Positions 28,832 through 56,311 of a stretch of 64,000 bases of DNA are shown here, piece by piece. The notes beneath the pieces were generated by a model that saw nothing but the letters and a program-made list of their open reading frames with translations, was not told where the DNA came from and made no database searches. Within the stretch, counting starts at the first letter, position 1, and every line of letters starts with the position of its first letter. The position numbers and the translations under genes were made by a program. This DNA comes from Bacteroidales bacterium (GTDB taxonomy: Bacteria; Bacteroidota; Bacteroidia; Bacteroidales; JAHJDW01). The stretch is taken from contig JBAZBZ010000002.1 in NCBI GenBank assembly GCA_041671145.1, positions 16,854 through 80,853 of the forward strand, given 5' to 3'.

Positions 28832-30343
28832 CTATAATTTTGCTACCTTCTTTTTCTTTAACGGTCTAATCAAAGGTCTGTTAATTTTTCCTCCTGTAAA
28901 ATCAAATATTTCAATTTCTCTGTTATTATTCCTGTTGCGTAATATAACTTTATTTATGTTTATTGAAGTGTCAACTTTTTGAATTATTGTTTTATTTGAT
29001 TTAAGATGAAAATTTGTCTGTTGCGCATCGGTAAAATAATAATAAAAAACAGTATCATTTTTTTCGTAGACATTATCTATTTTCTTTGCAATTACATTGA
29101 AGAATTTATTCCTTGTTACAAAATAAGTATTGAAATCATAAATTATCATTACACCGATATACACTGTGAACAAAACAAAAAGGAAGTACTTAAGAATATT
29201 TCTCACAAAGAATATCTCGTAAATTCCAATTGATAAAGAAATTATTATAAAAGGAACAGAAAATTGCGAATATTGAAATGAATAAGAAAGAGTGTGCCCT
29301 GATTTAACAGCTAAAATATTAGCCAATAAAAAACATGAAAACCCAAGAGTTAGAATTAATGATATTTTTTTTAATTCAAATGTCTTTTTATTTTTAAAAG
29401 AAAGCAAAATAAAAGCCATCGGGATTAAAAGTATTAGAGCAAGGTATCTCATTTTATAGCCCCAGCCAAGCATATCCCAATGTAAATAGTCGCCAATCAA
29501 ATATGTGTATAATTGATATGTATATAAAATCATTATTTTTATACTTATAACTTTTTCCCACAAATCAAATTCCCTTGCTTCTTTGAGCCACATTTCATTT
29601 CTTTGAGTCATCAATTGAAATCCCTGGTATCCATAAATAAAATACCATAACAAGAACACAACGAGCACAATCACACCACATATAAAAAGATTTTTCCACT
29701 TAACTTTATCTCTTAAAAATAAAATTGCAAATAATGCATGAACTAGAATTATGTAGAATGCCGAATAATGTGCAAACAGCAGCGCAATAGATGAAATTGC
29801 GTACAAAAAATAATTTATTTTTTTATCTTTTTCATAAAATATTTTAACAAAATAAAATGATGAAATAAGTGAAAGTAAAATTGCAAATTCGTATGAACGA
29901 GTTAGCACACCGAACTGAATTAGCGAAGGATGAATAATAGCAATCGCAGAGCTAATGTATGCAACATTTATATTGAATAATTTCTTTGCAAGTAAAAAAG
30001 TAAATAAAACAACTAATGCACCGCAAATTACAGAAAATAACCTTGTAGCAAAATCGCTGCTTCCAAAAACAGATGACCAGTAATATAGAATAATATTATA
30101 TAACAAACAATTTCCCGATTCGCATCTCATATTACTACTAATAACACTTTTGATATTATTATTATTATATGACTTATTATCAAAAGCCGAAAAAGTATTA
30201 AAAGGCACCTGACAATTTGAAGAAGTGTATGTAATCATAAACTCATCCCATGTCTTGGAGTTATAGTTTATTGAAATTATTCTCACAGCAAAAGCCATTA
30301 TGAATATTGATAAAACAATTAATATTTCTCTGTTAAATTTCAT
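28832..30343 (-). CDS. GT-C (ArnT/PMT_2-like) polytopic glycosyltransferase candidate, paralog A
   Basis: 503 aa, multi-TM, with WDEF acidic motif just after TM1. By eye it is about three-quarters identical to 32299..33798, with long identical runs. Confidence 0.65.
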   Translation of the reverse strand: MKFNREILIVLSIFIMAFAVRIISINYNSKTWDEFMITYTSSNCQVPFNTFSAFDNKSYNNNNIKSVISSNMRCESGNCLLYNIILYYWSSVFGSSDFATRLFSVICGALVVLFTFLLAKKLFNINVAYISSAIAIIHPSLIQFGVLTRSYEFAILLSLISSFYFVKIFYEKDKKINYFLYAISSIALLFAHYSAFYIILVHALFAILFLRDKVKWKNLFICGVIVLVVFLLWYFIYGYQGFQLMTQRNEMWLKEAREFDLWEKVISIKIMILYTYQLYTYLIGDYLHWDMLGWGYKMRYLALILLIPMAFILLSFKNKKTFELKKISLILTLGFSCFLLANILAVKSGHTLSYSFQYSQFSVPFIIISLSIGIYEIFFVRNILKYFLFVLFTVYIGVMIIYDFNTYFVTRNKFFNVIAKKIDNVYEKNDTVFYYYFTDAQQTNFHLKSNKTIIQKVDTSININKVILRNRNNNREIEIFDFTGGKINRPLIRPLKKKKVAKL

Positions 30344-30555
30344 CTGTTTAAATTTTGTAAGTGATTGAAATTACTGCTGTTAATTTGATGTTTTGTTTAT
30401 TTAACTTTTTTAGTTGCTCCCTCCCCACAACCTAAACACATGCTGATCGCGAATACCCATGCCTTTCTTCGTTGAAAACAGCACTGAATTTTTAATCATT
30501 TACGGTTTCTGCAACCTATTTTGTTTGCATGGATATTTCATATATTTTAATTTTA
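30305..30555 (-). repeat. Duplicated 5' module, copy A (leader + start codon + first ~12 codons)
   Basis: Aligns by eye with 35113..35365. Shared strings on the + strand include cttacaaaatttaaa (read on the minus strand), aacttttttagtt, aatcatttacggttt and ttgtttgcatggatatttca. It is GC-enriched relative to its flanks. Confidence 0.75.
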
Positions 30556-30593
30556 GTTTCTTATAATTTATTTTTCGCAGCATTTAATCTGTT

Positions 30594-31544
30594 TTAATGT
30601 ACATTCCCGTTAAAAAAAGAATTCACAAAGCTACGGGTATTAATCAACTCATATCGTTCCATTAAATTAGATATTATTCTTTCCGATTTTTGTATTTTAT
30701 TTTTAACGGAAATTTTGATATTTGGGTGAACCGCAAGTTCATTAGGAATACCATCACTCAAATCCATAAATTCAATTATATGGAACAAATACATCATATA
30801 CGGCTTATTTATTTTTTTTGAAATATAGTTTGAATATATGGAAGGAGCCCATAAATTAAAACTATTATAAAACGGAAGTCCCAGTACATTAGTCCTTGAA
30901 AATGGCAATTCCAAAAATTTATGGGATTTCGCATCTGGAACCAACCAATTATTTGCACTTGGTGTGTATGGATATTGTTCAAGTTTATTAGTAACAGTTC
31001 CGAAATCTGCATTATTGAGTCCGTTTTTAAAAAGCGCTCCATGCAAGATTCTAATAATAGGCACCACAATTGACCAAAATCCCGAAGAATCATATTTAAG
31101 CCCCAAATCTACAGCAATATTAATTACCTTTGAATTGACACTACAGCCGGGAGAGCGAAAACCTATTGGAGTAATACCGGTTATTTTCGCTATTATTTGA
31201 TTACACATTTTAATTTCTTCCTTTATTTTTTCTTCAGGCAAATTTGCCAACCCAAAAGGATGAGAATAGGTGTGGTTTTCTATTTCATGACCATACTTGT
31301 GCGCTTGCAAAATAATATTTTTAATAGCTTCACTGCTTTCAAGCTCGTCTCCAACCACAAAGAAAGTAACTTTTATATTTCGCTGGTTAAAAAAGTCCAA
31401 TGCTCTATTCCAAGCTGTTTTGTAAAACAATTCAAGCTTATTCTGATCGAAAACCACATTATTAATCTTATAGAAATTCATGAGTTTTACCGGTGAATCC
31501 ACATCAACAGTGATAATTAGTTTTCGTTCGTTATGATTATTCAT
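30594..31544 (-). CDS. Polysaccharide deacetylase (CE4 / NodB homology domain)
   Basis: ITVDVDSP and VTFFVVGDELESSEAIKNIILQAHKYGHEIENHTYSHP. Confidence 0.8.
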   Translation of the reverse strand: MNNHNERKLIITVDVDSPVKLMNFYKINNVVFDQNKLELFYKTAWNRALDFFNQRNIKVTFFVVGDELESSEAIKNIILQAHKYGHEIENHTYSHPFGLANLPEEKIKEEIKMCNQIIAKITGITPIGFRSPGCSVNSKVINIAVDLGLKYDSSGFWSIVVPIIRILHGALFKNGLNNADFGTVTNKLEQYPYTPSANNWLVPDAKSHKFLELPFSRTNVLGLPFYNSFNLWAPSIYSNYISKKINKPYMMYLFHIIEFMDLSDGIPNELAVHPNIKISVKNKIQKSERIISNLMERYELINTRSFVNSFFNGNVH

Positions 31545-31568
31545 CTATTCTATTATTAATTTTTAGTA

Positions 31569-32237
31569 TCAAATGCTTTTCGTTTGTATGATAATTGCAA
31601 CTTCATTTGGGTTATCAGATTGAATAAAAATCACTGAGTGTTTTTGATAAAACTTTATTGCCCTGTCATTAGTTTTTAAAATTCGTCCCAATATGTTTTG
31701 TATATTGTTTATTTTAAAATGAGCTATAACAGTTTTCAATATTACATTTGGAATACTTATTTTTTCAATCGGGTCGATGCTTTTTCGGAAATTCTCCAAT
31801 ACTCCACATGACAAATACTCACCCATTTTATAACAATACTCATTTTGTTGTAATTTCCCCAATAATGTATCTTTTTTCATTTTTAATAAAAATTTCAAAA
31901 ATAATATTATTCTATTGGGTTTTGATACCATAATAATCCCTAACAATACAAAAACCAGAATAAAATATTTCCTCATTCCTTCTTTCATAAATGTAAAAGG
32001 TTTATTTGTACATGAACCGAATCCAACATATTCCTCATTTTGTTTATACAGATAAACTTCAATTAAATTGTTCTTTGTAAGTTTAGAATAATAAAACTTT
32101 GAAAGAAATAAATAGCCGAGTTTTGAAAGAATGCTTTCGGGTAATAGTTTAATGTGCAGATTACTCACTGCTTTCACATGTTCTTTATTATCCCACTTTA
32201 AATAGATAATATTTTGATTGTTTGTTTTGTACTCCAT
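31569..32237 (-). CDS. GNAT-like acetyltransferase candidate with a central hydrophobic insert
   Basis: EEYVGFGSCT and C-terminal ILGRILKTNDRAIKFYQKHSVIFIQ (GNAT motif B-like). Weak. Confidence 0.45.
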   Translation of the reverse strand: MEYKTNNQNIIYLKWDNKEHVKAVSNLHIKLLPESILSKLGYLFLSKFYYSKLTKNNLIEVYLYKQNEEYVGFGSCTNKPFTFMKEGMRKYFILVFVLLGIIMVSKPNRIILFLKFLLKMKKDTLLGKLQQNEYCYKMGEYLSCGVLENFRKSIDPIEKISIPNVILKTVIAHFKINNIQNILGRILKTNDRAIKFYQKHSVIFIQSDNPNEVAIIIQTKSI

Positions 32238-32298
32238 GTTTATTTAGTTTTATATTTTGACTTACGGAGTGACATTGAGGCACTCCGTAAGTTAAATT

Positions 32299-33798
32299 TC
32301 AATTACTTTTTTTCTTAAGCATTTTATTCAAAGGTCTGTCAATTATTGCATTTGTAAAATCAAAAATTTCAATTTTTCTATTATTTTTTCTGTTAAAAAG
32401 CATTACTTTATTTATATTTATTGAAGTGTCAACTTTTTGGATTATTGTTTTATTTGATTTAAGATGAAAATTTGTTTGTTGGGCATCAGTATCATAATAA
32501 TAACAAACAGTATCATTTTTTTCATAAGCATTATCAATATTCTTTGCAATCACACTGAAAAATTTATTCTTTGATACAAAATAATTATTAAAATCATAAA
32601 TTATCATTATGCCAAAATACACTACAAGCAAAATAAAAAGGATATACCTAAAAATATTTTTCATGAAAAACATTTCATAAATTCCTATTGATAAAAAAAT
32701 TATTATAAAAGGGATAGAAAATTGCGAATATTGTTTTGCAAAAGAAGCAGTGTGTCCTGTTTTAATTGCTATCAAGTCAGCCAACAAAAAACATGAAAAA
32801 CCAGTAGTAAAAATCAGAAACAACTTACTCATTTCATTTTTTTTTATATTTTTAAATGAGAATAAAATGAAAACTATGGGTATGAAAAGAACTAAAATCA
32901 GATACCTCATTTTATAGCCCCATCCAAGCATATCCCAATGCAAACTGTCGCCAATGAGGTATGTAAATAACTGATATGTATATAAAATCATAATTTTAAT
33001 GCTTATTACTTTAGTCCATTTATTCATTTCTTTTGCATCTTTCAGCCTCATTTCACTTCTGTATGCTATCTGCTGAAACCCTTTATATCCATACGCAAAA
33101 TACCATGCAAGAAAAACCACTATTACAATTGCAGCGCATATCAATAGATTTTTCCATTTAACTTTGTCTCTTAAAAATAAAATTGCAAATAGTGCATGAA
33201 CTATAATTATATAGAAAGCAGAATAATGCGCAAACAGTAATGCAATAGTTGAAATTATATATAAAAAATAATTTATTGTTTTATCTTTTTCATAAACTAT
33301 TTTAACAAAATAAAATGACGAAATAAGCGAAAGCAAAGTCGCAAACTCATAAGTACGAGATAACGCACTGAATTGAATTAGCGAAGGATGTATAATAGCA
33401 ATCGCAGAACTGATGTATGCTACATTTATATTGAATAATTTCCTTGCAAGCAAAAAAGTAAATAAAACAACTAATGCACCGCAAATTACAGAAAGCAATC
33501 TTGTTGCAAAATCGCTGCTTCCGAATGCACATGACCAGTAATACAGAACAATATTATACAACAAGCAATTTCCCGATTCGAAAAAGAAGTTATTATTTAT
33601 AACCTTTGTAATATTATTTTCAATAAACGACTTGTTATCAAAAGTGGAAGAAGAATAAAGTATCTGGTTATTTGAAGAAGTGTACGTAATAATATATTCA
33701 TCCCAGTTCTTTGGTGTACTATTTATTGAAATTATTCTCATAGCAAAAGCTACTATGAATATTGTTAAAGCAATTAATGTTTCTTTTTTATATCTCAT
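32299..33798 (-). CDS. GT-C (ArnT/PMT_2-like) polytopic glycosyltransferase candidate, paralog B
   Basis: 499 aa with WDEY after TM1. It shares NINVAYISSAIAIIHPSLIQF, HALFAILFLRDKVKWKNL and DAQQTNFHLKSNKTIIQKVDTSININKV identically with paralog A. Confidence 0.65.
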   Translation of the reverse strand: MRYKKETLIALTIFIVAFAMRIISINSTPKNWDEYIITYTSSNNQILYSSSTFDNKSFIENNITKVINNNFFFESGNCLLYNIVLYYWSCAFGSSDFATRLLSVICGALVVLFTFLLARKLFNINVAYISSAIAIIHPSLIQFSALSRTYEFATLLSLISSFYFVKIVYEKDKTINYFLYIISTIALLFAHYSAFYIIIVHALFAILFLRDKVKWKNLLICAAIVIVVFLAWYFAYGYKGFQQIAYRSEMRLKDAKEMNKWTKVISIKIMILYTYQLFTYLIGDSLHWDMLGWGYKMRYLILVLFIPIVFILFSFKNIKKNEMSKLFLIFTTGFSCFLLADLIAIKTGHTASFAKQYSQFSIPFIIIFLSIGIYEMFFMKNIFRYILFILLVVYFGIMIIYDFNNYFVSKNKFFSVIAKNIDNAYEKNDTVCYYYDTDAQQTNFHLKSNKTIIQKVDTSININKVMLFNRKNNRKIEIFDFTNAIIDRPLNKMLKKKSN

Positions 33799-33861
33799 GA
33801 GTTGTATCTATTTTCTTAATTAATTATTAAGATATATTTCCTATTCAAAAATCATATAAAA

Positions 33862-35151
33862 TCAAATTATTCTTATACTTTTAATATATTTTTCAAACAA
33901 TAATATATTTGCAATTACAACAATACTTATCCCACCAATATAATACATCGGAAAAGGATATACCAATACTCCGGGAATAATATAAAAACCAAAAGTAATC
34001 AGAAAAATTAAAATTGTTTTAAATGAAGATTTTGTTTTAAAGAAATAGTAGATTCCTAAATTAAACGAAATGAAAATAAACATCAAAACATATATGAATT
34101 TTTGAAATAATGTTTTCAAAAAAAATATTTTATCATTTATTATTATTTTCAAACACACATTTTTCATGATGTCTTCATATTCTTTAGGATATTTGTAAAA
34201 ATCAATTTCTAATTTCTTATTTATTTTCTTTGCGACATTAAAACCCGTGGTATCATGGCATGTTATACCATATTTATTATTACCAAAACCCATACCTAAA
34301 TATAAACTATGCCATAAAACATGTTTGTTATTTACTAAATTAATTTTATTTTCATACTTATGTTCAATAAGCCAATTGTTTCTTTTATTAATTAAATGAT
34401 TAAAATATATTGAAGGAATATATATAGGCATTGTAATAAATAGCAAACAAATAATTTTATACTTAATGCTAAAGTTATTTTTATTATAAAACAAAACATA
34501 TAAAATAAAAAACAACAATAAACCTGTTCCTGAATTGCTTCTGAATTTATTTGAAATTCCAATAAAAACTCCTATAAAAAACAATATCAATAAAAACAAC
34601 TTGCTTTTACTGCTATCAGCTTTTTTTAAAAAATATATTATTAAAGGAATAAATGAAATAATAAAAAAAGACAGAATATAAACATTCATAACAAAGAAGC
34701 AAAACAAAGATAACAAGCAATACAATGAATAAGAGTATATTTTGCTCAATTTATCATCGAACAACAAAGAAAATCCTATTGTAGCGACAAAAAATCCGGA
34801 AATAATAAATAGAGAAAATAATAATAAATAAGCATTAGGGATAGTTGAAATATTTAAACTATTTTTTACTGCTACTACAAAAAAATAAATACCCATATCA
34901 TCGCCAAAAAGCTCAACAGGATTATACTCTTCTACACGTTCTCCTTTATCATTTGAATTTTCAAGGTAATATAACAAATATGTATTGGTTTTATTAAATG
35001 CTTCATCTGTTTTAATTAGTGCATTTATCCTGAATCCCTGATTTGCAAATTTCAAATTATTAAATAAATCTTTTTCATCAAGTTTATAAAAAGCAAATAG
35101 TATTAAAATAAAAACTAAGGACGGAACAATTAATTTGATATTTTTTTTCAT
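33862..35151 (-). CDS. Polytopic membrane protein of unknown function
   Basis: About 429 aa from ATG (MKKNIKLIVPSLVF...); the ORF track begins at an upstream TTG (35172). Many TM segments. Only its N-terminal ~20 aa resemble GT-C paralog A. Confidence 0.55.
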   Translation of the reverse strand: MKKNIKLIVPSLVFILILFAFYKLDEKDLFNNLKFANQGFRINALIKTDEAFNKTNTYLLYYLENSNDKGERVEEYNPVELFGDDMGIYFFVVAVKNSLNISTIPNAYLLLFSLFIISGFFVATIGFSLLFDDKLSKIYSYSLYCLLSLFCFFVMNVYILSFFIISFIPLIIYFLKKADSSKSKLFLLILFFIGVFIGISNKFRSNSGTGLLLFFILYVLFYNKNNFSIKYKIICLLFITMPIYIPSIYFNHLINKRNNWLIEHKYENKINLVNNKHVLWHSLYLGMGFGNNKYGITCHDTTGFNVAKKINKKLEIDFYKYPKEYEDIMKNVCLKIIINDKIFFLKTLFQKFIYVLMFIFISFNLGIYYFFKTKSSFKTILIFLITFGFYIIPGVLVYPFPMYYIGGISIVVIANILLFEKYIKSIRII

Positions 35152-35365
35152 GCTTTTAAATTTTGTAAGCAATTAAAATTTCTGCTTTTAATTTTCTATT
35201 TTAGTTAATAAACTTTTTTAGTTACTCACTCCCGCAAAAGCCAACCGCACAACCTGCTCGTGAATATCCATGCCTTACTTTGTTAAAAGTTGCGTTGCTC
35301 ATTTAATCATTTACGGTTTGTGCATTTTTTTTGTTTGCATGGATATTTCAGCATATTTATTTTTA
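35113..35365 (-). repeat. Duplicated 5' module, copy B
   Basis: Homologous to 30305..30555. Contains the inverted repeat gaatatccatgc (35262-35273) / gcatggatattt (35337-35348). Confidence 0.75.
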
Positions 35366-35402: not shown

Positions 35403-36473
35403 TTATCTCAACTCCAAATATTCAAAATGATTGTGTATATTATTAATAAAGCCGCTCGGTGAAATATATTCTTCATAAAGTTTTCTTATATTCAATTGAA
35501 GATTTAAAAATTCCTCATCGGAAATGCTGTTATGAAAATCCAAAAGTATCTTGTCGATTTTATTTATTTCGTTTTCTTCAACCCAAACTACATATTTTTT
35601 CCAGTCGATGCAAAAATCATAAGGCAACACACAATCGGTATTAATAAAAACAGGAATTCTTCCGCAAATAATAGTTTCATAAAAACGATAGGAATAATTT
35701 CCTCCTCCTCTTGTGCATAGCACATAATTATTATTTATTATATTATCGATAAACATTTTTTTATTCTGCGACATGGTAAGCTTTTTATCGCCAAACATAC
35801 TGGTTATTGTTATATCTGAATTTATTTTATCATTATTTTTCAAAATTTTTAATGCATCAGCTCTGAATTTATAACCATCGTAATACCACTTTTCATGCAA
35901 CAAACATTTTTTTGAAATCTTATAAGAAACCCTGTTAATATTATTTTTTAATTTCTTTTTAAATATCTCCAGTGCATCAATAGGCTGCGAACAACCTCTG
36001 AAACCTATTTTAGGTTTTTCTTCTTTTTTGCTTAAAAAATAATTATCTTTAAAATTTATTACTTTTATATCTTCTCTCCACGAAGGCATTGCAAAATTTA
36101 TCGAATTTGCGGTTCTCTGTTTTGATTTATTTAATGAAGTTCTGAAAACAATCGAATTTTCTAAACCTATATCTTTATCATCATCATCATAATAAAATAC
36201 AATTATCTTTTTATTCTTTTCGTTTGCAAGATTTATAAGGAATTTCGACTTTTCGAGTAAATTCAATGCTTTAAGCCATTCCCAGTTTATTGGCAAAATA
36301 AAAAAGTCGGCATTATCTGGTTCATGCACCAGTTCAAAACCGAAATTTGATTGAGAACATGGATTATTTTTATTGTCATTAAAAAGAATAGATGTTAAAA
36401 TAAATGATAAATTCTCAATATTATTCTTTGCAATATTAAAATCCGTAAACAATTTAATTTTTGTTGAATCCAT
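35403..36473 (-). CDS. Exostosin-like (GT47-type) glycosyltransferase
   Basis: YVLCTRGGGNYSYRFYETIICGRIPVFINTDCVLPYDFCIDWKKYVVWVEENEI matches the exostosin C-terminal block (F.L.PRG....S.R..E....GCIPV...D...LP....W..F). Confidence 0.65.
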   Translation of the reverse strand: MDSTKIKLFTDFNIAKNNIENLSFILTSILFNDNKNNPCSQSNFGFELVHEPDNADFFILPINWEWLKALNLLEKSKFLINLANEKNKKIIVFYYDDDDKDIGLENSIVFRTSLNKSKQRTANSINFAMPSWREDIKVINFKDNYFLSKKEEKPKIGFRGCSQPIDALEIFKKKLKNNINRVSYKISKKCLLHEKWYYDGYKFRADALKILKNNDKINSDITITSMFGDKKLTMSQNKKMFIDNIINNNYVLCTRGGGNYSYRFYETIICGRIPVFINTDCVLPYDFCIDWKKYVVWVEENEINKIDKILLDFHNSISDEEFLNLQLNIRKLYEEYISPSGFINNIHNHFEYLELR

Positions 36474-38138: not shown

Positions 38139-38210
38139 GCGGAAGTAGTTCAGCGGTAGAATATCGGCTTCCCAAGCCGAGGGTCGCGGGTTCGAATCCC
38201 GTTTTCCGCT
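38139..38210 (+). tRNA. tRNA-Gly (anticodon CCC)
   Basis: GCGGAAGTAGTTCAGCGGTAGAATA... The anticodon arm is TCGGC-TTCCCAA-GCCGA, with GGTTCGAATCC as the T-loop. The acceptor pairs GCGGAAG/TTTCCGC, and no CCA is encoded. Confidence 0.9.
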
Positions 38211-39153: not shown

Positions 39154-42100
39154 ATGAAAAAATCAATATTAACTTCAGCATTACTGTTAATTGGAAGTTT
39201 CATTTTTGCACAAGACGGAACACGTAAACCAATCAGTGACCCTACGGTAAACGGGCAAACCATAGACCTAACAACAGGTATGGAAATTACATCGAGCGGA
39301 GCAAACGCCTCTACATCTCCTTCTCCTAATTATCACCCGGTAACATATGCTGCAAATGAATATTATACTGTTGTTTTGCACTCAGCAAATCATACCAAAT
39401 TGAAATTTTCTTTCAGAACGATTAGTCAATTAGCTCCTGATGTTTCTCATGTTCCAATTGAGCACGTTGATATAAAAAGCACCGACCACTTAAAAGTATA
39501 TGAGGGAATTGGCACAGGAGGCACTGTGTTATTTGATTATACAGATTTATCTTATACAACTACAGCTTCATATCCAGCTTTAAACGGGAGTGCAGTTGTT
39601 TCTATGGGGGAGTATATAACTATTGAATGGACATCTGCTTCTGCAAGCGCAGGTTATGGATTCAGGGTCGCTGTGGGTTGTCCTCCCGATAATTGTAATG
39701 GAAACAAGCCCGCTGCGGATTCGTGTCAAAACGCTACACCTATTTGTGATTTAACAAACTATTGCGGAAACACAAGTTATTGGTATTCCCGCGATTTGCC
39801 GGGAACCACAGGAGCCATGTGCGACGGGAACTTTTCATATCCTACTACCTGTGCCCTTTTCAATGGTGCTGTTGATAACAATTCGTGGCTTATTTTTCAG
39901 GCAGCCAGTTCTGCAGTTAACTTGCAGGTAACTGTTAGTAATTGCACAAACAGTACCAATAATGGAATTCAATTTGCAGTATATAATGGTTCAAATTGTA
40001 ACAATTTTACTTTAGTATCAGATGCAGTATATATTAGTCCTACTGGCATTCCACCTCCTGGTACAACTGTTTCTTTAACGGGGCTAACTCCAGGTAATAA
40101 TTATTACATTATGATAGATGGAAGGAACGGGGATGTTTGTGATTATACAATTAAAGCAAGCAGTGGTGTATCTGTTATTAGTGCAAATTCTACAAATAAT
40201 AACATTTGCTTGGGAACATCTACCACTCTTTGTGCAAGCGGGGGAAATAATTTTACATGGAGTAATGGTGGCGGATTAGGGAGTTGCGTAACAATTTCTC
40301 CAACAATTACTACTACATATACAGTTACAGGTGTTCCTGATTTTCAGTTATGTGGTCTTCTTGGAACGGCTTCTGTTGTGGTTACTATTAATACACCACC
40401 TGCTGTATTAGCAACAGGAAACTCAATTTGCAGTGGAGCATGCACAACAGTTACTGCAACTGGAGGATTAACATATACATGGAGTACAAGCCCTGTGCAA
40501 TACGGCTCTGCAATAACAGTTTGCCCCACAGCTACAACCACATATTATGTTACAGGAACAAATTCATCGGGATGCACCAACACTTCTTCAACAGTTGTTA
40601 CTGTAAATACTTTTACTGCGTTTGGAGCTACGGGAAATTCAGTTTGTAACGGAGGATGTACAACAGTTACGGCAACAGGAGGAAGTTTTTATACGTGGAA
40701 TACAAGTCCGCCACAAACAAGTTCTACTATTACTGTTTGTCCATCAGCAACAACAACATATATAGTCACCATTACAAATTCTTTAGGGTGTTCGGCAACT
40801 ACTTCAGCAGTTGTAACAGTAAACCTCTTTACTACAATTGGAGCTACGGGAAATGTAGTTTGTAGTGGAGGTTGCACAACAATCTCGGCAACAGGCGGAG
40901 ATACATATACATGGAGTACAAGTCCAACGAAAACAGGTGCTACTATTACTGTTTGTCCTACAGCAACAATAACTTATACCGTTACCGGTGCAAATTTTTC
41001 AGGATGTTCAGGAACTTCTTCAACAGTAGTAAATATAAACACAATACCTAACATCACTGCAACAGGTGGTCAAGCTTGTAAAGGAATATGTACGACAATT
41101 TCAGCAAATGGACCTAATTTATTTATGTGGAGTACAGGACAGAGTGGTAATATCATATCAGTTTGTCCTACAACTACTACCACATATACTGTTACCGGAA
41201 CAACTGCAAACTGTACAAATTCGACGTCTGCAATAGTAACAATATTTGCAAACCCAACAATAACTGCAAACGGAGGAGCAATATGTATTGGCAATTCATT
41301 TGTTATCACTGCTTCAGGAGGTAGTTTGTACACGTGGAATATAGGACCAAATACTCCCGGCATAACTGTCAGCCCTACTACTATCACAACTTATTGCGTA
41401 ACAGGCACCGACTCGCATACTTGTTCAAATACTTATTGTGTTATAGTTAATGTTAACCAAAAGCCCGGTATAACTTTAAATGGAACACCATCATCTATAT
41501 GTTATGGTAATAATACTATTTTAACAGCTAGCGGAGGTAATTCATATAGTTGGAATAATGGATTAGGTACGGGACAGCCTAAAACAGTTTCACCAACACA
41601 AACAATTATGTATATCGTAACTGGTACTAATAATAACGGATGCTCTAATACCATACAAACAACTATTACTGTCTTTCCACAACTTTTTGCAAGTACAATC
41701 CCGACTGATGAAATTTGCAATAATGACAGCGGAGCAGCTTGTATAACAGTTACAGGCGGAGTACCCACATATTCATATTTGTGGAATACAGGAGCAAATA
41801 CAAGTTGCATTAATAATTTACATACAGGAAGTTTTACTGTATCAGTAGTTGATTTGAATGGATGTCCAATAATAAGAACTATAGTTGTTAATAACATAAT
41901 GACAGACCCTGATGGTACTCCAACTGCCGATAAATATCTTGATGTCATAACTCACAAATTTTTATTTGACTGGAATGGAACAAACGGCTCAAATTATCAT
42001 TGGAATTTTGGCGACGGAGATACAAGCAATCTAAAAAATCCAAATCATACTTACGAAAAAAGTGGTAAGTACACAGTAAAACTTATTGTAATGTCAGCGA

Positions 42101-42411
42101 ATGGCTGTTTAATGGAATACACTTTCACAGTTGAAGTTGTAGTACCATTCAAAATTGAAGTTTTCAATGTTTTCACTCCGAATAATGATAACATTAATGA
42201 CAGATACAAGGTTAAATATACTGGTGATTATTTATATTTCCGAATGTTGATTTTCGACCGATGGGGAAGAAAATTACATGAAACAAAAGATATTGATGCA
42301 GGATGGAAATGCGATAATTGTTCCGATGGAACATATTATTATATAATTTACGCAAAAGGAAAAGACGGAAGTGAATATGATTTTCACGGAGCTCTTACTT
42401 TAATAAAATAA
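39154..42411 (+). CDS. T9SS-secreted repeat adhesin with type-B (CHU_C / gliding-motility-associated) C-terminal sorting domain
   Basis: Signal peptide MKKSILTSALLLIGSFIFAQ. Seven ~72-aa Cys-containing repeats, an SprB-type repeat (ACITVTGGVPTYSYLWNTG) and a PKD domain (WNFGDGDTSNLKNPNHTYEKSGKYTVKL). The C-terminus is FNVFTPNNDNINDRY...IFDRWGRKLHE...GWKCDNCSDGTYYYIIY...GALTLIK. Confidence 0.85.
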   Translation: MKKSILTSALLLIGSFIFAQDGTRKPISDPTVNGQTIDLTTGMEITSSGANASTSPSPNYHPVTYAANEYYTVVLHSANHTKLKFSFRTISQLAPDVSHVPIEHVDIKSTDHLKVYEGIGTGGTVLFDYTDLSYTTTASYPALNGSAVVSMGEYITIEWTSASASAGYGFRVAVGCPPDNCNGNKPAADSCQNATPICDLTNYCGNTSYWYSRDLPGTTGAMCDGNFSYPTTCALFNGAVDNNSWLIFQAASSAVNLQVTVSNCTNSTNNGIQFAVYNGSNCNNFTLVSDAVYISPTGIPPPGTTVSLTGLTPGNNYYIMIDGRNGDVCDYTIKASSGVSVISANSTNNNICLGTSTTLCASGGNNFTWSNGGGLGSCVTISPTITTTYTVTGVPDFQLCGLLGTASVVVTINTPPAVLATGNSICSGACTTVTATGGLTYTWSTSPVQYGSAITVCPTATTTYYVTGTNSSGCTNTSSTVVTVNTFTAFGATGNSVCNGGCTTVTATGGSFYTWNTSPPQTSSTITVCPSATTTYIVTITNSLGCSATTSAVVTVNLFTTIGATGNVVCSGGCTTISATGGDTYTWSTSPTKTGATITVCPTATITYTVTGANFSGCSGTSSTVVNINTIPNITATGGQACKGICTTISANGPNLFMWSTGQSGNIISVCPTTTTTYTVTGTTANCTNSTSAIVTIFANPTITANGGAICIGNSFVITASGGSLYTWNIGPNTPGITVSPTTITTYCVTGTDSHTCSNTYCVIVNVNQKPGITLNGTPSSICYGNNTILTASGGNSYSWNNGLGTGQPKTVSPTQTIMYIVTGTNNNGCSNTIQTTITVFPQLFASTIPTDEICNNDSGAACITVTGGVPTYSYLWNTGANTSCINNLHTGSFTVSVVDLNGCPIIRTIVVNNIMTDPDGTPTADKYLDVITHKFLFDWNGTNGSNYHWNFGDGDTSNLKNPNHTYEKSGKYTVKLIVMSANGCLMEYTFTVEVVVPFKIEVFNVFTPNNDNINDRYKVKYTGDYLYFRMLIFDRWGRKLHETKDIDAGWKCDNCSDGTYYYIIYAKGKDGSEYDFHGALTLIK
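40180..41690 (+). repeat. In-frame tandem array, ~7 units of ~210-216 nt, inside the adhesin gene
   Basis: Unit consensus ATGNxxCxGxCTTxxATGGxxYTWSTSPxxxGxxITVCPTATTTYxVTGTNxxGCxxTSSxVVTVN. DNA-level similarity between adjacent units is visible. Confidence 0.8.
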
Positions 42412-52914: not shown

Positions 52915-52988
52915 TCGGGATGGCGGGATTTGAACCCGCGACCACTACGTCCCGAACGTAGTACGCTACCAGGCTGCGCTACATCCCG
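52915..52988 (-). tRNA. tRNA-Pro (anticodon CGG)
   Basis: The reverse complement reads CGGGATGTAGCGCAGCCTGGTAGCGTA-CTACG-TTCGGGA-CGTAG-...GGTTCAAATCCCGCCATCCCGA. The acceptor pairs CGGGATG/CATCCCG. Confidence 0.9.
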
Positions 52989-53162: not shown

Positions 53163-56100
53163 TTATTTTATTTTAACAACCTTGCTCTCATCAATATAAA
53201 TCAACACTCCCTCTTCAATCTCATATCCCAAATCCTGAAGCAAGCAGGCATATTCTTTGATTTGCTGTTTGTGTTTTTCTTTTTCTTTTCCTGTTTTAAA
53301 ATCAATAACTATTGCCCTGTTATTTTTTAAAATTATCCTGTCGGGACGGTATGTTTTACCGTCTTTTAATATTTCTCTTTCGGATTTAACATTTATTCCT
53401 TCTTCAAAATATGGCTTTATTTCAGGATTAGAAAGCAAAACAGTTATTTCTTCTTTTAATTTTTCCTTTTCGGTGTTTTTAATTAATCCTTCCGAATGAA
53501 TTAAATTTACAGCAAGTTCGACATCTGTGACAGTAAATATTTTTGAAAGAACTTCATGTATTAATATTCCTCTCTGTTTTTTTATGAATACTTTGTCATT
53601 CCATAAATCAGGAGCATTTCTTCTTAATAAAACTTTATCCTGCCAACTGTTATATATAAATGAATTTAATTTAACCATGTTTCCATTACTTTGCTTTCTC
53701 TTATCAGAGGGAGATACTTTCACGGCTTTTTCACCGTATTCGTAAAGAGTTTTATTTTCAATATAATCGCTTTTTGAAATAAAATATTTTTTTATAACAC
53801 CTGATATGTTTTCTTTCTTTCTTTCTTCTTTTGCAAAAACATGTAATCGTTCCTTCGGGCGAGTCATAGCAACATATAATACATTCAGTTCATCAAGAAA
53901 AGTTTTATTCACTTCTTCTTCATATACCCCGCTGTATTCCGAATGCAGAAGTTTTTTGTTTAATGAAACAAGAACAGAATTCATATTCTTAATTCCCTTG
54001 TTTTCGATATTCAGCCAAATATAATCTGCAAGCTTATTTGTTTTCCAGTCGGCAAAAGGTATAATGACAATAGGGAACTGCAATCCCTTTGCTTTATGGA
54101 TTGTCATTATCCTCACTGCATTAATTTCTTCCGGTATCATTAAAGATTTTTTACCTTTTTCTTCATCCCACCAAACAAGAAAATCAGATAAAATGCTATT
54201 GGATTTAGAATTGTATTCCAAAACCAAATCAAGAAAAAACTGAATATAAATATTTGAATTTACATTGAGTTTGAAAGTATCTATGAGCTTTTCCGCAAGG
54301 TCGAATAAATTAAAACTTGATAATCCCGAGAGAGAGAGAGTAAAATTATTTTTCCCGAGCAAATCAGTAAATTGCAAAACACTTAATTTGGCAGCATTTC
54401 CAAATATTTCTTCATACTCTATGTTGATGTAATTTTTACTTTTCAGATATTGTAATATTTCTGCTTTTGCAATATTATTATCATTATTTACTAAAAATTT
54501 CATGAACGACACAATGAAGCAAACATCGGGAGAATTGCATAACAAAAGCGATTCGGAAGAAACTACATTTATGTCATTCTCTAATAAAAAAATTGCTGTT
54601 TTTATTGCATGAACATTTGAGCGGCAGAGAATGGCAATATCGTTTAATTCATATCCGTCTTTTATTGCTTCCTCCACAACATCAATGATTTTTACTAATG
54701 TTAATTCATCGTAATCAACATTATCAATAAACTCAACACTAACATAACCACCTTCATTGTTTTCTTTTGTATTTTGCTTTACATCAGCATATATTTTTTT
54801 GTATTGAGCATTGAGCTGTTCTGAAGCCACGCCGAAAAAATCATTATTAAATTTTACTATAACATTTTTGCTTCTTCGGTTCACATCAAGCTTTTGCTCA
54901 GTATAATTTTGTTTCAGAATATTTTCTTTTTCGGAAATAATTTCACTTTGCGGTTTGTATATTTCCGGTAAATTGCCGAATTGCTCAACCTCTCCGCCAC
55001 GCCAACGATAAATTGCCTGCTTTCCGTCTCCAACAACCATATTGAAATCTGAATTTGCAAGCGAGTTTTCAATCATCGGCAGAAAATTTTGCCACTGCAT
55101 AACCGATGTATCTTGAAATTCATCAATTAAAAAATGATGATATTTAGTTCCTATTCGCTCGAATATAAACGGAACCGGCTCGTTAATGACAATATCTGAA
55201 ATTAATTTATTGAATTCAGAAATATGAATTTTGTTGGTTTGCTTTTTGTATTCTTCAACAAGTTTTTCAATTTCATTTAATAGCGCTGTTTCATAAATAT
55301 TCCTGTTGATTAACGAAAACAAAACATAATCGGATTTTTCTTTTTCTATTAACTGCTGTGCGTTTTCATAAATTAAAATTAATTCGGGCTTTATTTCATC
55401 AATCATTTTTTTTGTTACGCCATCAATTTTATTAATATAAAATTTCCCGTCATCAATGGCTGCCATAACGTATGAATTAGGCACCAGCAATTCACATCTT
55501 TTTCAAACAATGCAAGTTTTTCAAAATATTTCGGCAATCCCTTTTCTCCGTTTAAAAAATCTTTAAATTCAATATTCTTCGATTTTATTTTTTCAACTCC
55601 CTTCTTCCCGACTTCATTTATTTTATTTTCAAACAATTTTATTTTTTTGTAAAATAAACTTCTTAATGCAAGGAAGTCCTTTATTGAAATTTTTTTTAAA
55701 TTCCTAAAATGAGAGCAGGTATCTTCTTTGAAAAGATTTTTTGAAAAACCGAGAATGTTATTCTCAATTTTCCAACTTTTCTCATCTTCAATTTTTGATT
55801 CAATAAACTCAACAAGTACTTTGGTAATATCCTCATCACTTCCGGCTTTACTAATAAGCACATCGATTACATGTTCCAATATAAGTTCCGCATCAAGTTC
55901 GACTTCGAAATTAAAACCTATTTTCAAATCATTTGCAAAACTTCGTATTATTCTATGAGTGAACGAATCAATTGTGCCTATTGCAAAATCGGAATAGTTG
56001 TGAAGTATTGCATTAAGAATTTTCTTTGCTCTTGCTTTAATTATATTTTCATCAAGATTCAGCTCACTCTTTACTTGTTCCAACAAGCTTTTGGTTTGTT

Positions 56101-56311
56101 CATTTTTCAAAACAGTCAAATCATCTAACGTGTCAATTACACGCTGCTTCATTTCTTCAGCTGCTTTATTGGTGAATGTTATTGCAAGTATACCGCGGAA
56201 TTTATTGCAATCATCATCGGCAAGAATCAATTTCAGATATTCTTTTACAAGCGTAAAAGTTTTACCCGAACCGGCAGATGAACGATATACGGTGAAGTTT
56301 TTCTGAGACAC
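53163..56311 (-). pseudogene. AddA/UvrD-type helicase with C-terminal PD-(D/E)XK nuclease, split by a frameshift
   Basis: N-terminal piece (55415..56311): AGSGKTF and ITFTNKAA. C-terminal piece (53163..55490): LIDEFQDTS, VGDGKQAIYRWRGG, TIHKAKGLQFP, VAMTRPKERL and nuclease RPDRII...VIDFKTGK. The two frames overlap across 55415-55502. Confidence 0.75.

Follow-up and report, generated by a model that had tools for sequence, protein, structure and literature searches.

A start-codon-targeting mobile module, probably an IS110-derived miniature, in front of unrelated genes of uncultured Bacteroidales

A 64,000-nt stretch of the genome of a Bacteroidales bacterium (assembly GCA_041671145.1, contig JBAZBZ010000002.1, positions 16,854 to 80,853; hereafter the window) carries two copies of a non-coding module, each directly in front of a different membrane-protein gene. 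A sequence-only reading of this DNA had described a duplicated, GC-enriched 5' module of about 250 bp, and had proposed either a regulatory leader of polysaccharide operons or a portable cassette behind which alternative genes are placed. In our judgement the two modules are probably ~195-nt, non-autonomous derivatives of an IS110-family (DEDD) insertion sequence (IS) of uncultured Bacteroidales, similar to MITEs (miniature inverted-repeat transposable elements). In line with such an assignment, they are short (195-197 nt) and multicopy, contain no conserved open reading frame (ORF), have ends homologous to those of an IS, share its target, and are polymorphic for presence and absence.

The duplication itself is real. 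The two minus-strand spacers are of similar length, 250 nt between a polysaccharide-deacetylase gene (30594-31544) and the glycosyltransferase gene GT-C paralog A, and 251 nt between a GT47-like gene (35403-36473) and a gene for a polytopic membrane protein (see Table 1 for both downstream genes); about 215 nt of them can be aligned. The copies, A and B, are about 80% identical, have the same orientation and lie 4.8 kb apart. Three identical blocks of 18-21 nt, GAAATATCCATGCAAACAAAA, AAACCGTAAATGATTAAA and AAGGCATGGRTATTCRCGA, occur exactly twice each in the 64 kb, and none of them has a third occurrence in the window even when three mismatches are allowed. Two matches to the 21-mer or the 19-mer block were found in 0 of 100 shuffles; the 18-mer block alone is weaker, since 15 of 100 shuffles reach two matches. 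Likewise, a covariance model of the element detects only two strong copies in the window (A, 113.9 bits; B, 131.8 bits). The GC enrichment noted in the sequence-only reading was borne out (0.38 in the copies versus about 0.28 in the surrounding DNA), and the G-rich runs it pointed out on the sense strand correspond to a GGGAGnGAG block conserved throughout the element family. The extents it had assigned (about 30305-30555 and 35113-35365) have to be narrowed to the 195 and 197 nt listed in Table 1, for which the boundaries of copy A were taken from empty/filled pairs of other copies and from the empty orthologous site in a related genome. Nor does the similarity run ~35 nt into the coding sequence, as had been claimed: the first 45 nt after the two ATGs give a local alignment score of 10, against a mean of 7.9 (standard deviation 2.4) for 820 pairs of window ORFs, among which this pair ranks 161. 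Across the family, homology ends at the ATG, and a relative that lacks the element has an N-terminus orthologous to that of GT-C paralog A. GT-C paralog A now starts at the last three bases of copy A, and the terminal ATG of copy B (35149-35151) is the start of the polytopic gene.

That the element is an insertion follows from three comparisons of empty and filled sites, one of them at strain level, in which native upstream DNA and an ATGAAA are retained at the element's 5' edge (the compared loci on contigs from metagenome-assembled genomes (MAGs) and metagenomes are labelled L002-L052). In L023 and L043 (MAG GCA_041643025.1), about 90 nt upstream of a universal-stress-protein gene are identical; the empty allele, L043, reads CACATT ATGAAA AAAGAAAAA, and the filled allele, L023, reads CACATT ATGAAA, followed by the element (TATCCATGC...ATACACATG) and then by the same AAAGAAAAA. 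The protein has 288 aa and begins MKKEKK in three cluster mates, as compared with 287 aa and MKEKK in the filled allele. The second comparison concerns a 417-aa protein (L019/L024) with orthologues at 96%, 93% and 83% identity (comparison with L037, L035 and L038). Here the native flank CGTTATTTTTT ATGAAA is kept 5' of the element in L024 and the gene resumes with ...TATAG ATG AAAACATTT, such that the filled gene encodes 417 aa starting with MKT, whereas all close orthologues have 418 aa and start with MKK. In the third, the gene for a 107-aa membrane protein in L013 was compared with six empty loci (L044-L049), and the native upstream flank again lies 5' of the element. The covariance model has no match in any of the empty loci of these comparisons. 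In the two closest pairs, L023/L043 and L024/L037, TATCC...ATG is precisely what was inserted; no base is duplicated and the boundary cannot be shifted. Two apparently truncated orthologues of 393-394 aa (L039, L040) turned out to be gene-calling differences and not insertions.

The window itself can be compared with L004, the syntenic locus of the Bacteroidales MAG STD1_214 (GCA_029004185.1), which holds the only relatives of the window's GT-C genes. Its genes run in the order flavin reductase, 500-aa membrane protein, GT47, GT-C, 218-aa protein, deacetylase, GT-C and methyltransferases. GT47 overlaps the next gene by 4 nt, the spacer behind the deacetylase gene is 20 nt long, the polytopic gene is missing, and the covariance model finds no match at either orthologous site.

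The element forms a dispersed family. When one genome of each GTDB species was scanned with a two-block pattern, two copies were identified in STD1_214, the first in front of a gene for a signal-peptide protein and the second between two convergent genes, with ATA in place of ATG. A scan of Joint Genome Institute (JGI) metagenomes with the long-range stem alone returned 30 loci, 19 of which have the full architecture. In total, the covariance model identified 23 sense-strand copies in 21 sources of the collected sequence and two more in L050 and L052; these 25 matches are all in Bacteroidales MAG or metagenome contigs, and the module is not unique to its two sites in the window. The carriers are Bacteroidales by their source names, and at least five copies reside in one Bacteroidales MAG. 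A three-block pattern had no matches in viral and metagenome collections, the pattern of the long-range stem had none in viral contigs, a blastn search with copy B had none among plasmids, and a literature search for the conserved 12-mers gave chance matches only. The window contains no orthologues of the genes flanking the element in L002 and L003.

With the exception of one orphan copy and the tandem arrays described below, every copy is on the sense strand and stands immediately 5' of a start codon. The genes behind it are unrelated to each other and encode a GT-C glycosyltransferase, an S9 peptidase, a universal stress protein, a redoxin, a holin-like membrane protein, a TPR/PD40 protein, a protein with an epimerase-like N-terminus, a transposase and several unknowns. 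ATGAAA opens 15 of the 17 distinct genes behind the element, versus 9 of 41 ORFs in the window, and most copies are flanked on both sides by AAA (or ATGAAA). Tandem junctions read ...CACATG AAA TATCC... The new ATG together with a following AAA recreates the target, accounting both for the tandem arrays and for the excess of ATGAAA starts. In 6 of 23 copies, the element's 5' ATG has a perfect -7 box of the Bacteroidetes type (TAnnTTTG) 14-32 nt upstream, compared with about 0.35 expected by chance in that interval from our own base-composition estimate, while most other copies, including both copies in the window, are located 1-90 nt behind a co-directional gene.

The link to the IS110 family comes from a transposase-bearing relative. 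In L009, a partial short copy abuts an IS110-family transposase gene (PF01548 + PF02371), and in other contigs with the same protein one 1494-bp unit containing the transposase gene recurs in three different contexts (L050, L051 and L052). This unit begins ATGAAA/TATCCATAAAC... and ends ...AAAAAATATACAGATG/, followed by AAA and unrelated sequence beyond. It thus has the same termini and target as the short element (ATGAAA/TATCCAT and ACAGATG/AAA), and its ends are not inverted repeats. The transposase matches DEDD_Tnp_IS110 (3e-26) and Transposase_20 (1.3e-12) in Pfam. Furthermore, both ends of the unit can be aligned with a short copy from the same contig: the left end (65 nt) with its first ~65 nt, at a score that none of 300 shuffles reached, and the right end with its last ~95 nt, at a score reached by 6 of 300 shuffles. 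A CCAACCG-type box found in block 2 of the short element is present in both non-coding ends of the unit. The covariance model matches the long element weakly and the adjacent short copies strongly. Tandem arrays containing the IS110-family element occupy L009/L051 1-1837, L050 332-2030 and L052 1-1814.

Taken together, these data show that the element inserts one way round, directly after the ATG-AAA of a gene, leaving the host promoter region, the old ATG and its Lys codon at its own 5' edge, where they now begin a short, non-conserved upstream ORF (uORF; MKYPCK...). An A/U-rich initiation region and the terminal ATG of the element provide the new start of the gene, at the cost of one lysine (MKK to MK) in the closest pairs. 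The stop codons and the initiation region carried by the element would make such an insertion harmless. In the window, GT-C paralog A received copy A in this way and the polytopic gene received copy B, in each case at the gene's start. Short copies would be mobilised in trans by an IS110-family transposase, via a circular intermediate and RNA-guided recombination, and the conserved core of the element (P1, block 2 and the G-rich block, described below) would be needed for mobilisation, as a guide resembling a bridge or seek RNA and/or as a recombination-site structure. The portable cassette of the sequence-only reading is thus partly supported, as the same leader and ATG stand before unrelated genes because the module is mobile; the direction, however, is the reverse of that envisaged, since the element moves to genes, and neither a swapping of genes behind a fixed expression signal nor recombination between the window copies is needed or indicated.

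The short element begins with TATCC and finishes in the A/U-rich initiation region and ATG. In its 5' part, (T)ATGAAATATCCATGCAAAC is followed by a small variable hairpin, CACyAACCGnRATGAwTAAA, a variable region and GGCATGGATATTCACGAGC; the 3' part consists of optional GC-rich hairpins at fixed positions, GGGAGnGAGyAAC, an A-run, an A/U-rich spacer of 16 to about 150 nt between core and start codon, a AAAATTTAAACAG-like end and the ATG. Terminal inverted repeats are absent, as TATCCATGC... and ...AAACAGATG are unrelated in reverse complement; together with the absence of a target duplication in the two closest pairs, this led us to reject a classical MITE. The sole robust helix, P1, has 13 bp and pairs UGAA(A)UAUCCAUGC with GCAUGGAUAUUCA across 55-85 nt; RNAalifold recovers P1 alone. 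Five cells of its alignment hold U.G wobbles, which read from the opposite strand would be A.C mismatches. A 3' arm serving as a guide to the element's own left end, with which it would be complementary, or a hairpin formed by single-stranded DNA would produce this pairing pattern as well. Two candidate pairings over longer distances that involve block 2 (CAACCG/CGGUUG and GCACnA/UnGUGU) were discarded, being mutually exclusive and only weakly above shuffles. The optional hairpins have unrelated sequences at the same insertion points in different copies, with some C-G to U-A changes. A 23-nt GC-rich hairpin module (GCCTGCCCGACTGGCAAGGCGGG) is present as 0, 1 or 2 tandem units at one fixed position (L013 8593-8778, L014 485-670 and others) and may be a separate mini-repeat nested in the element. 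The short element contains motifs of either polarity that resemble the junctions, namely GCAUGGAUAUUCA and AUGA(A/U)UAAA / GAUGAAUAUC. Indels break the frames of the uORFs that begin at the conserved 5' ATG, whose lengths vary between 6 and over 70 codons, and block 2 (UAAAUGAUUAA) presents stops in all three frames in copies of the window type. A small protein gene (MKYPCK...) was rejected, because only its first six codons are constant and the bases of these codons form P1. Between 30100 and 35600, a scan for sigma-70 promoters and intrinsic terminators found no promoter excess and no terminators. Sigma-54-like or Bacteroidetes promoter motifs inside the element, an inverton, an integron attC site and pairing against the initiation region were also considered by eye and dropped, as they are not conserved across copies.

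The corresponding parts of the two window copies are listed in Table 1. The ATGAAA that precedes copy A we infer to be the original start and Lys codon of GT-C paralog A, and the CTGAAA preceding copy B we read as a decayed remnant of a native ATGAAA.

Table 1. Features of the two element copies in the window and of their host genes
Feature	Position	Strand	Remarks
Element copy A, 195 nt	30341..30535	-	5'-TATCCATGC...AAACAGATG-3'; covariance-model match
ATGAAA 5' of copy A	30536..30541	-	Homologous ATGAAA carries the native upstream flank in three other copies
Decoy uORF, 13 codons (MKYPCKQNRLQKP*)	30500-30541	-	Translation from the ATGAAA 5' of copy A
P1 5' arm, copy A (UGAAAUAUCCAUGC)	30527..30540	-	Spans the insertion junction: 5 flank + 9 element bases
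P1 3' arm, copy A (GCAUGGGUAUUCG)	30450..30462	-	Two U.G pairs, A.C mismatches on the opposite strand
Block 2, copy A (AAACCGTAAATGATTAAA)	30491..30508	-	Stops in all three frames (UAA, UGA, UAA)
G-rich block and A-run, copy A (GGGGAGGGAGCAAC-TAAAAAA)	30406..30426	-	3' end of conserved core
3'-terminal A/U-rich initiation motif, copy A (CTTACAAAATTTAAACAG)	30344..30361	-	Directly before terminal ATG
Element copy B, 197 nt	35149..35345	-	Covariance-model match
CTGAAA 5' of copy B	35346..35351	-	Sole copy among 23 with C at this position
P1 5' arm, copy B	35337..35350	-	
P1 3' arm, copy B (GCAUGGAUAUUCA)	35261..35273	-	
Block 2, copy B	35302..35319	-	
G-rich block and A-run, copy B (GCGGGAGTGAGTAAC-TAAAAAA)	35214..35235	-	
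3'-terminal initiation motif, copy B (CTTACAAAATTTAAAAGC)	35152..35169	-	
Host gene of copy A: PMT_2 (GT-C/GT39-like) glycosyltransferase	28832..30343	-	Paralog of 32299-33798
Host gene of copy B: 429-aa polytopic protein	33862..35151	-	No Pfam family, no homologue

Several observations weigh against an origin from an IS110-family element. There is no transposase gene in the window, and none is adjacent to 22 of the 23 short copies, so that mobilisation in trans is supposed; the circular intermediate is likewise supposed, from the properties of the IS110 family. In all contigs that carry it, the transposase ORF is split (322 aa + 69 aa) at a run of nine A residues, which could be a programmed frameshift or a shared inactivating mutation. 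The 1494-bp element, the sole full-length one seen, is missing the 3' arm of P1; it is therefore related to the short family without being the direct parent of it. The two closest pairs share no base at the crossover, whereas IS110 elements normally recombine at a donor/target core. In the more diverged comparisons, those of L013 and of window copy A with L004, an ATGAAA stands on both sides of the element, so that either the right cut falls after ATGAAA or these lineages had an extra AAA; none of the fixed-boundary models that we tried (a 6-bp duplication, a 3-bp duplication, or an element-borne AAA) fits all four empty/filled comparisons. As regards P1, the 99.7% pairing across the 23 copies is in part a selection effect among the metagenome matches, for which the search pattern required the P1 sequence. 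The covariation asked for in the sequence-only reading was found in this helix, where three pairs are changed on both sides (UAUCC/GGAUA to CCUUC/GAAGG; 0 of 500 shuffles), but all of these compensatory changes come from one sequence, the diverged copy L005:654-795.

Among the alternatives, we consider it unlikely that the modules represent a vertically conserved cis-regulatory leader RNA of polysaccharide or envelope genes, the two window copies being paralogous leaders under selection. Such a leader would account for the conserved and partly covarying helix with its long invariant single-stranded blocks, for the constant position on the sense strand 5' of a gene, and for the -7 boxes, which put the element at the 5' end of the transcript in 6 of 23 copies. 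In addition, by eye, the translations of about three quarters of the genes behind the element begin like a signal peptide or with a membrane span; this bias, however, follows from a target of ATGAAA(AAA), which encodes the MKK of such exported proteins. Furthermore, the element is missing at orthologous sites in close relatives and in strain variants, its downstream genes are functionally unrelated, and its core lies at widely different distances from the start codon with neither a terminator nor a sequestering hairpin. Searches of Rfam 15 at the gathering score returned only tRNAs in the window, and neither copy, nor any of 10 homologous loci, nor L050 had a credible match when the cut-off was relaxed to E<=10 or E<=1. 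The more specific proposal of the sequence-only reading, an antitermination, riboswitch, UpxY or RfaH-type leader of polysaccharide operons, thus finds no support: the ops sequence (GGCGGTAG) is missing, as that reading had itself remarked, the copies are internal to the operon, and no KOW/NusG family was seen among the flanking ORFs scanned. Nothing suggests polysaccharide-specific regulation or recombination between copies A and B. The conserved core may nevertheless act at the RNA level, as a bridge-RNA-like guide or as a cis-acting leader.

Quite unlikely, too, is a non-autonomous palindrome-associated transposable element (PATE) of the IS200/IS605 type, moved as single-stranded DNA by a Y1 HUH transposase, in which the P1 hairpin and an internal TTCA 'guide' (TTCA/GCATGGATA) would recognise TGAA(A). 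The features shared with such elements are the lack of terminal inverted repeats and, in the two closest pairs, of a target duplication, insertion 3' of a fixed short sequence, a strand-specific hairpin that tolerates G.T/G.U pairs, and a 3' arm of this hairpin complementary to flanking target bases. Yet the one element that shares these ends and this target and also bears a transposase gene encodes a DEDD enzyme of the IS110 family and not Y1, and a tblastn search of 360 kb of collected sequence for relatives of an IS200 TnpA gave no match. Moreover, there is no matching hairpin at the right end, as seen in copies of the L013/L014/L032 type, and in some copies the right end comprises only 16-26 A/T-rich nucleotides.

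An intron-like element, in which excision of UAUCC...AUG at the RNA level would restore the AUG-AAA-AAA frame, as with IStrons, seems very unlikely. In its favour, the two closest pairs show an exact, scarless insertion that separates codons 2 and 3, P1 joins the 5' flank to internal sequence in the manner of an internal guide, and the last base of the element is G. Against this, models of group I and group II introns gave no match, permissive threshold included, the junction is preceded by A where a group I intron would have U at its 5' splice site, the full-length relative has a DNA transposase gene, and the in-frame stops, the initiation region and the invariant terminal ATG would be superfluous if the element were spliced out. 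Finally, a local segmental duplication or gene conversion that copied the leader before a second gene of the operon can practically be dismissed: the direct orientation and proximity of the copies, the duplicated GT-C gene in the region they flank and a copy divergence (about 80% identity) similar to that of the GT-C paralogs are set against the occurrence of the GT-C pair without either element in STD1_214, of equally similar copies at unrelated loci in other genomes, and of an A/B homology that stops exactly at the boundaries of the family.

Both window copies lie inside a minus-strand polysaccharide-biosynthesis operon, with which they must be co-transcribed. The polytopic gene behind copy B lies in the lowest-GC kilobase of the region (0.215) and constitutes an indel with respect to STD1_214. 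A search for its homologues, made to test a 'leader plus gene cassette', found none among 5.8 billion proteins, so that it is an orphan; probably the gene was acquired recently or evolves fast. The PMT_2/GT-C paralogs form a pair in the window (28832-30343 and 32299-33798, minus strand) as well as in L004 (3770-5257 and 6958-8460), with 75-80% aa identity; these four proteins have no other relatives in the database and represent a lineage-restricted duplicated enzyme. GT-C paralog A had no exact entry in the contig index.

Elsewhere in the window, tRNA genes are located at 38139-38210 (plus strand), just upstream of the operon head, and at 52915-52988 (minus strand). A 1085-aa ORF at 39154-42411 (plus strand) contains at least five tandem coding repeats of 210-216 nt, and a repeat domain like that of this ORF is encoded at the 5' end of L002 in a related MAG. 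A UvrD/Rep-like helicase is encoded in two overlapping ORFs (53163-55490 and 55415-56311, minus strand), with the N-terminal domain in one of them, and this split may reflect a frameshift, a pseudogene or an assembly error. Among the compared loci, L044-L049 (genes at about 1201-2358) and L013 share a pair of genes for proteins of 107 and 273 aa with a conserved ~45-nt upstream segment. The pair is found behind different upstream genes at 90% protein identity or more, its carriers being labelled Paludibacteraceae, Tenuifilaceae, Bacteroidota and even Candidatus Paceibacterota, which looks like either the horizontal spread of a cassette or an artefact of binning.

A miniature IS110-family derivative that inserts at start codons would explain how a near-identical 5' leader and start come to stand on unrelated Bacteroidales genes, where they can be mistaken for a regulatory RNA or a recombination hotspot. 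It would also show how a mobile element can enter the first codons of a gene without inactivating it, by means of a replacement initiation region and ATG. For genome annotation, start codons, N-termini (MK versus MKK), spurious uORFs and extended ORFs downstream of elements need correction; in L014, for example, the public gene calls of 161-179 aa for a 129-aa ORF (P0132-P0134) are an annotation artefact caused by read-through of the element. If the link to an IS110 recombinase holds, the family would provide natural, compact (~195 nt) donor/guide modules with a defined target of 6-9 nt (ATGAAAAAA), of relevance to the biology and engineering of bridge recombinases. A bolder possibility, which we put forward tentatively and regard as rather doubtful, is that the ~135-nt core is a self-encoded bridge or seek guide RNA, expressed from the promoter of the invaded gene and programming insertion into ATG-AAA by a DEDD recombinase acting in trans, while the element serves as a portable translation module. 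If so, many Bacteroidales genes, mostly for exported proteins, would have had their 5' ends rewired by a 'start-codon hopper' guided by RNA.

How does this element compare with known systems? IS110 elements encode a DEDD recombinase, have no terminal inverted repeats, insert sequence-specifically and excise scarlessly as circles, and their bridge RNA is encoded in a long left non-coding end in the IS110 group, as opposed to a long right end, with a short left end, in the IS1111 group (PMC11208160). The family described here resembles IS110/IS1111 elements such as IS621 (PMC11208160, PMC11208158) in the DEDD_Tnp_IS110 and Transposase_20 domains of its full-length relative, the absence of terminal inverted repeats, the sequence- and orientation-specific insertion and the long structured non-coding ends, and the short left and long right ends of the 1494-bp element are like those of the IS1111 group. 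It differs in that P1 is missing from the full-length relative, that a donor/target core is not evident, and that the bridge RNA is putative.

The closest parallel is MITEPpu9, a documented MITE-like derivative of the IS110-family element ISPpu9 in Pseudomonas putida KT2440, which forms minicircles (PMC12288879). It too is a short, transposase-less module with an RNA gene, is bounded by the end sequences of an IS110-family IS, and occurs linked to the IS, alone or in tandem, with use of the IS transposase in trans having been proposed (PMC12288879). ISPpu9 targets REP/BIME palindromes (repetitive extragenic palindromic sequences and bacterial interspersed mosaic elements) and shares an AG dinucleotide with its target, whereas the Bacteroidales element targets ATGAAA and has no shared crossover base in the two best pairs. 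Unlike MITEPpu9, the latter supplies stops, an initiation region and a new ATG, is found in a different phylum without sequence similarity, and is known from its sequence, whereas minicircles have been demonstrated for MITEPpu9. The Bacteroidales family would thus be a second, phylogenetically distant example of modular transposition of the ISPpu9/MITEPpu9 type.

Other likenesses are more partial. IS200/IS605 elements have no inverted repeats, produce no duplication and insert 3' of a specific tetra- or pentanucleotide (PMC7290912); these features, hairpins at the ends and base pairing between guide and target are common to them, to PATEs and to the element described here, but the latter is associated with a DEDD transposase, no Y1 was found in the collected sequence, and the hairpin architecture is different. 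The 'mobile promoters' (PMC3575422) are likewise near-identical 5' regions upstream of unrelated genes within and between genomes, whereas our element lies downstream of the native promoter and start codon and no promoter was detected inside it. With the leaders of polysaccharide operons (ops/RfaH, UpxY 5' untranslated regions and EAR RNA), the window copies share an intergenic position in a polysaccharide-biosynthesis operon; in contrast to these leaders, they have no ops sequence and no NusG-like gene at the operon head, are not conserved at orthologous sites and belong to a family that is not polysaccharide-specific. IStrons, which are IS605/IS607 elements fused to a group I intron, similarly limit gene damage by means of a built-in device acting at the RNA level. 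In the Bacteroidales element, which has no intron core, the device would be translational (decoy uORF, stops, initiation region and ATG) and not based on splicing. On the sequence evidence, then, this element is probably a miniature derived from the IS110 family, and its unusual property is the targeting and replacement of start codons, which is documented here by the comparison of empty and filled alleles at the strain level. To our knowledge, insertion at start codons with provision of a replacement start has not been described previously.

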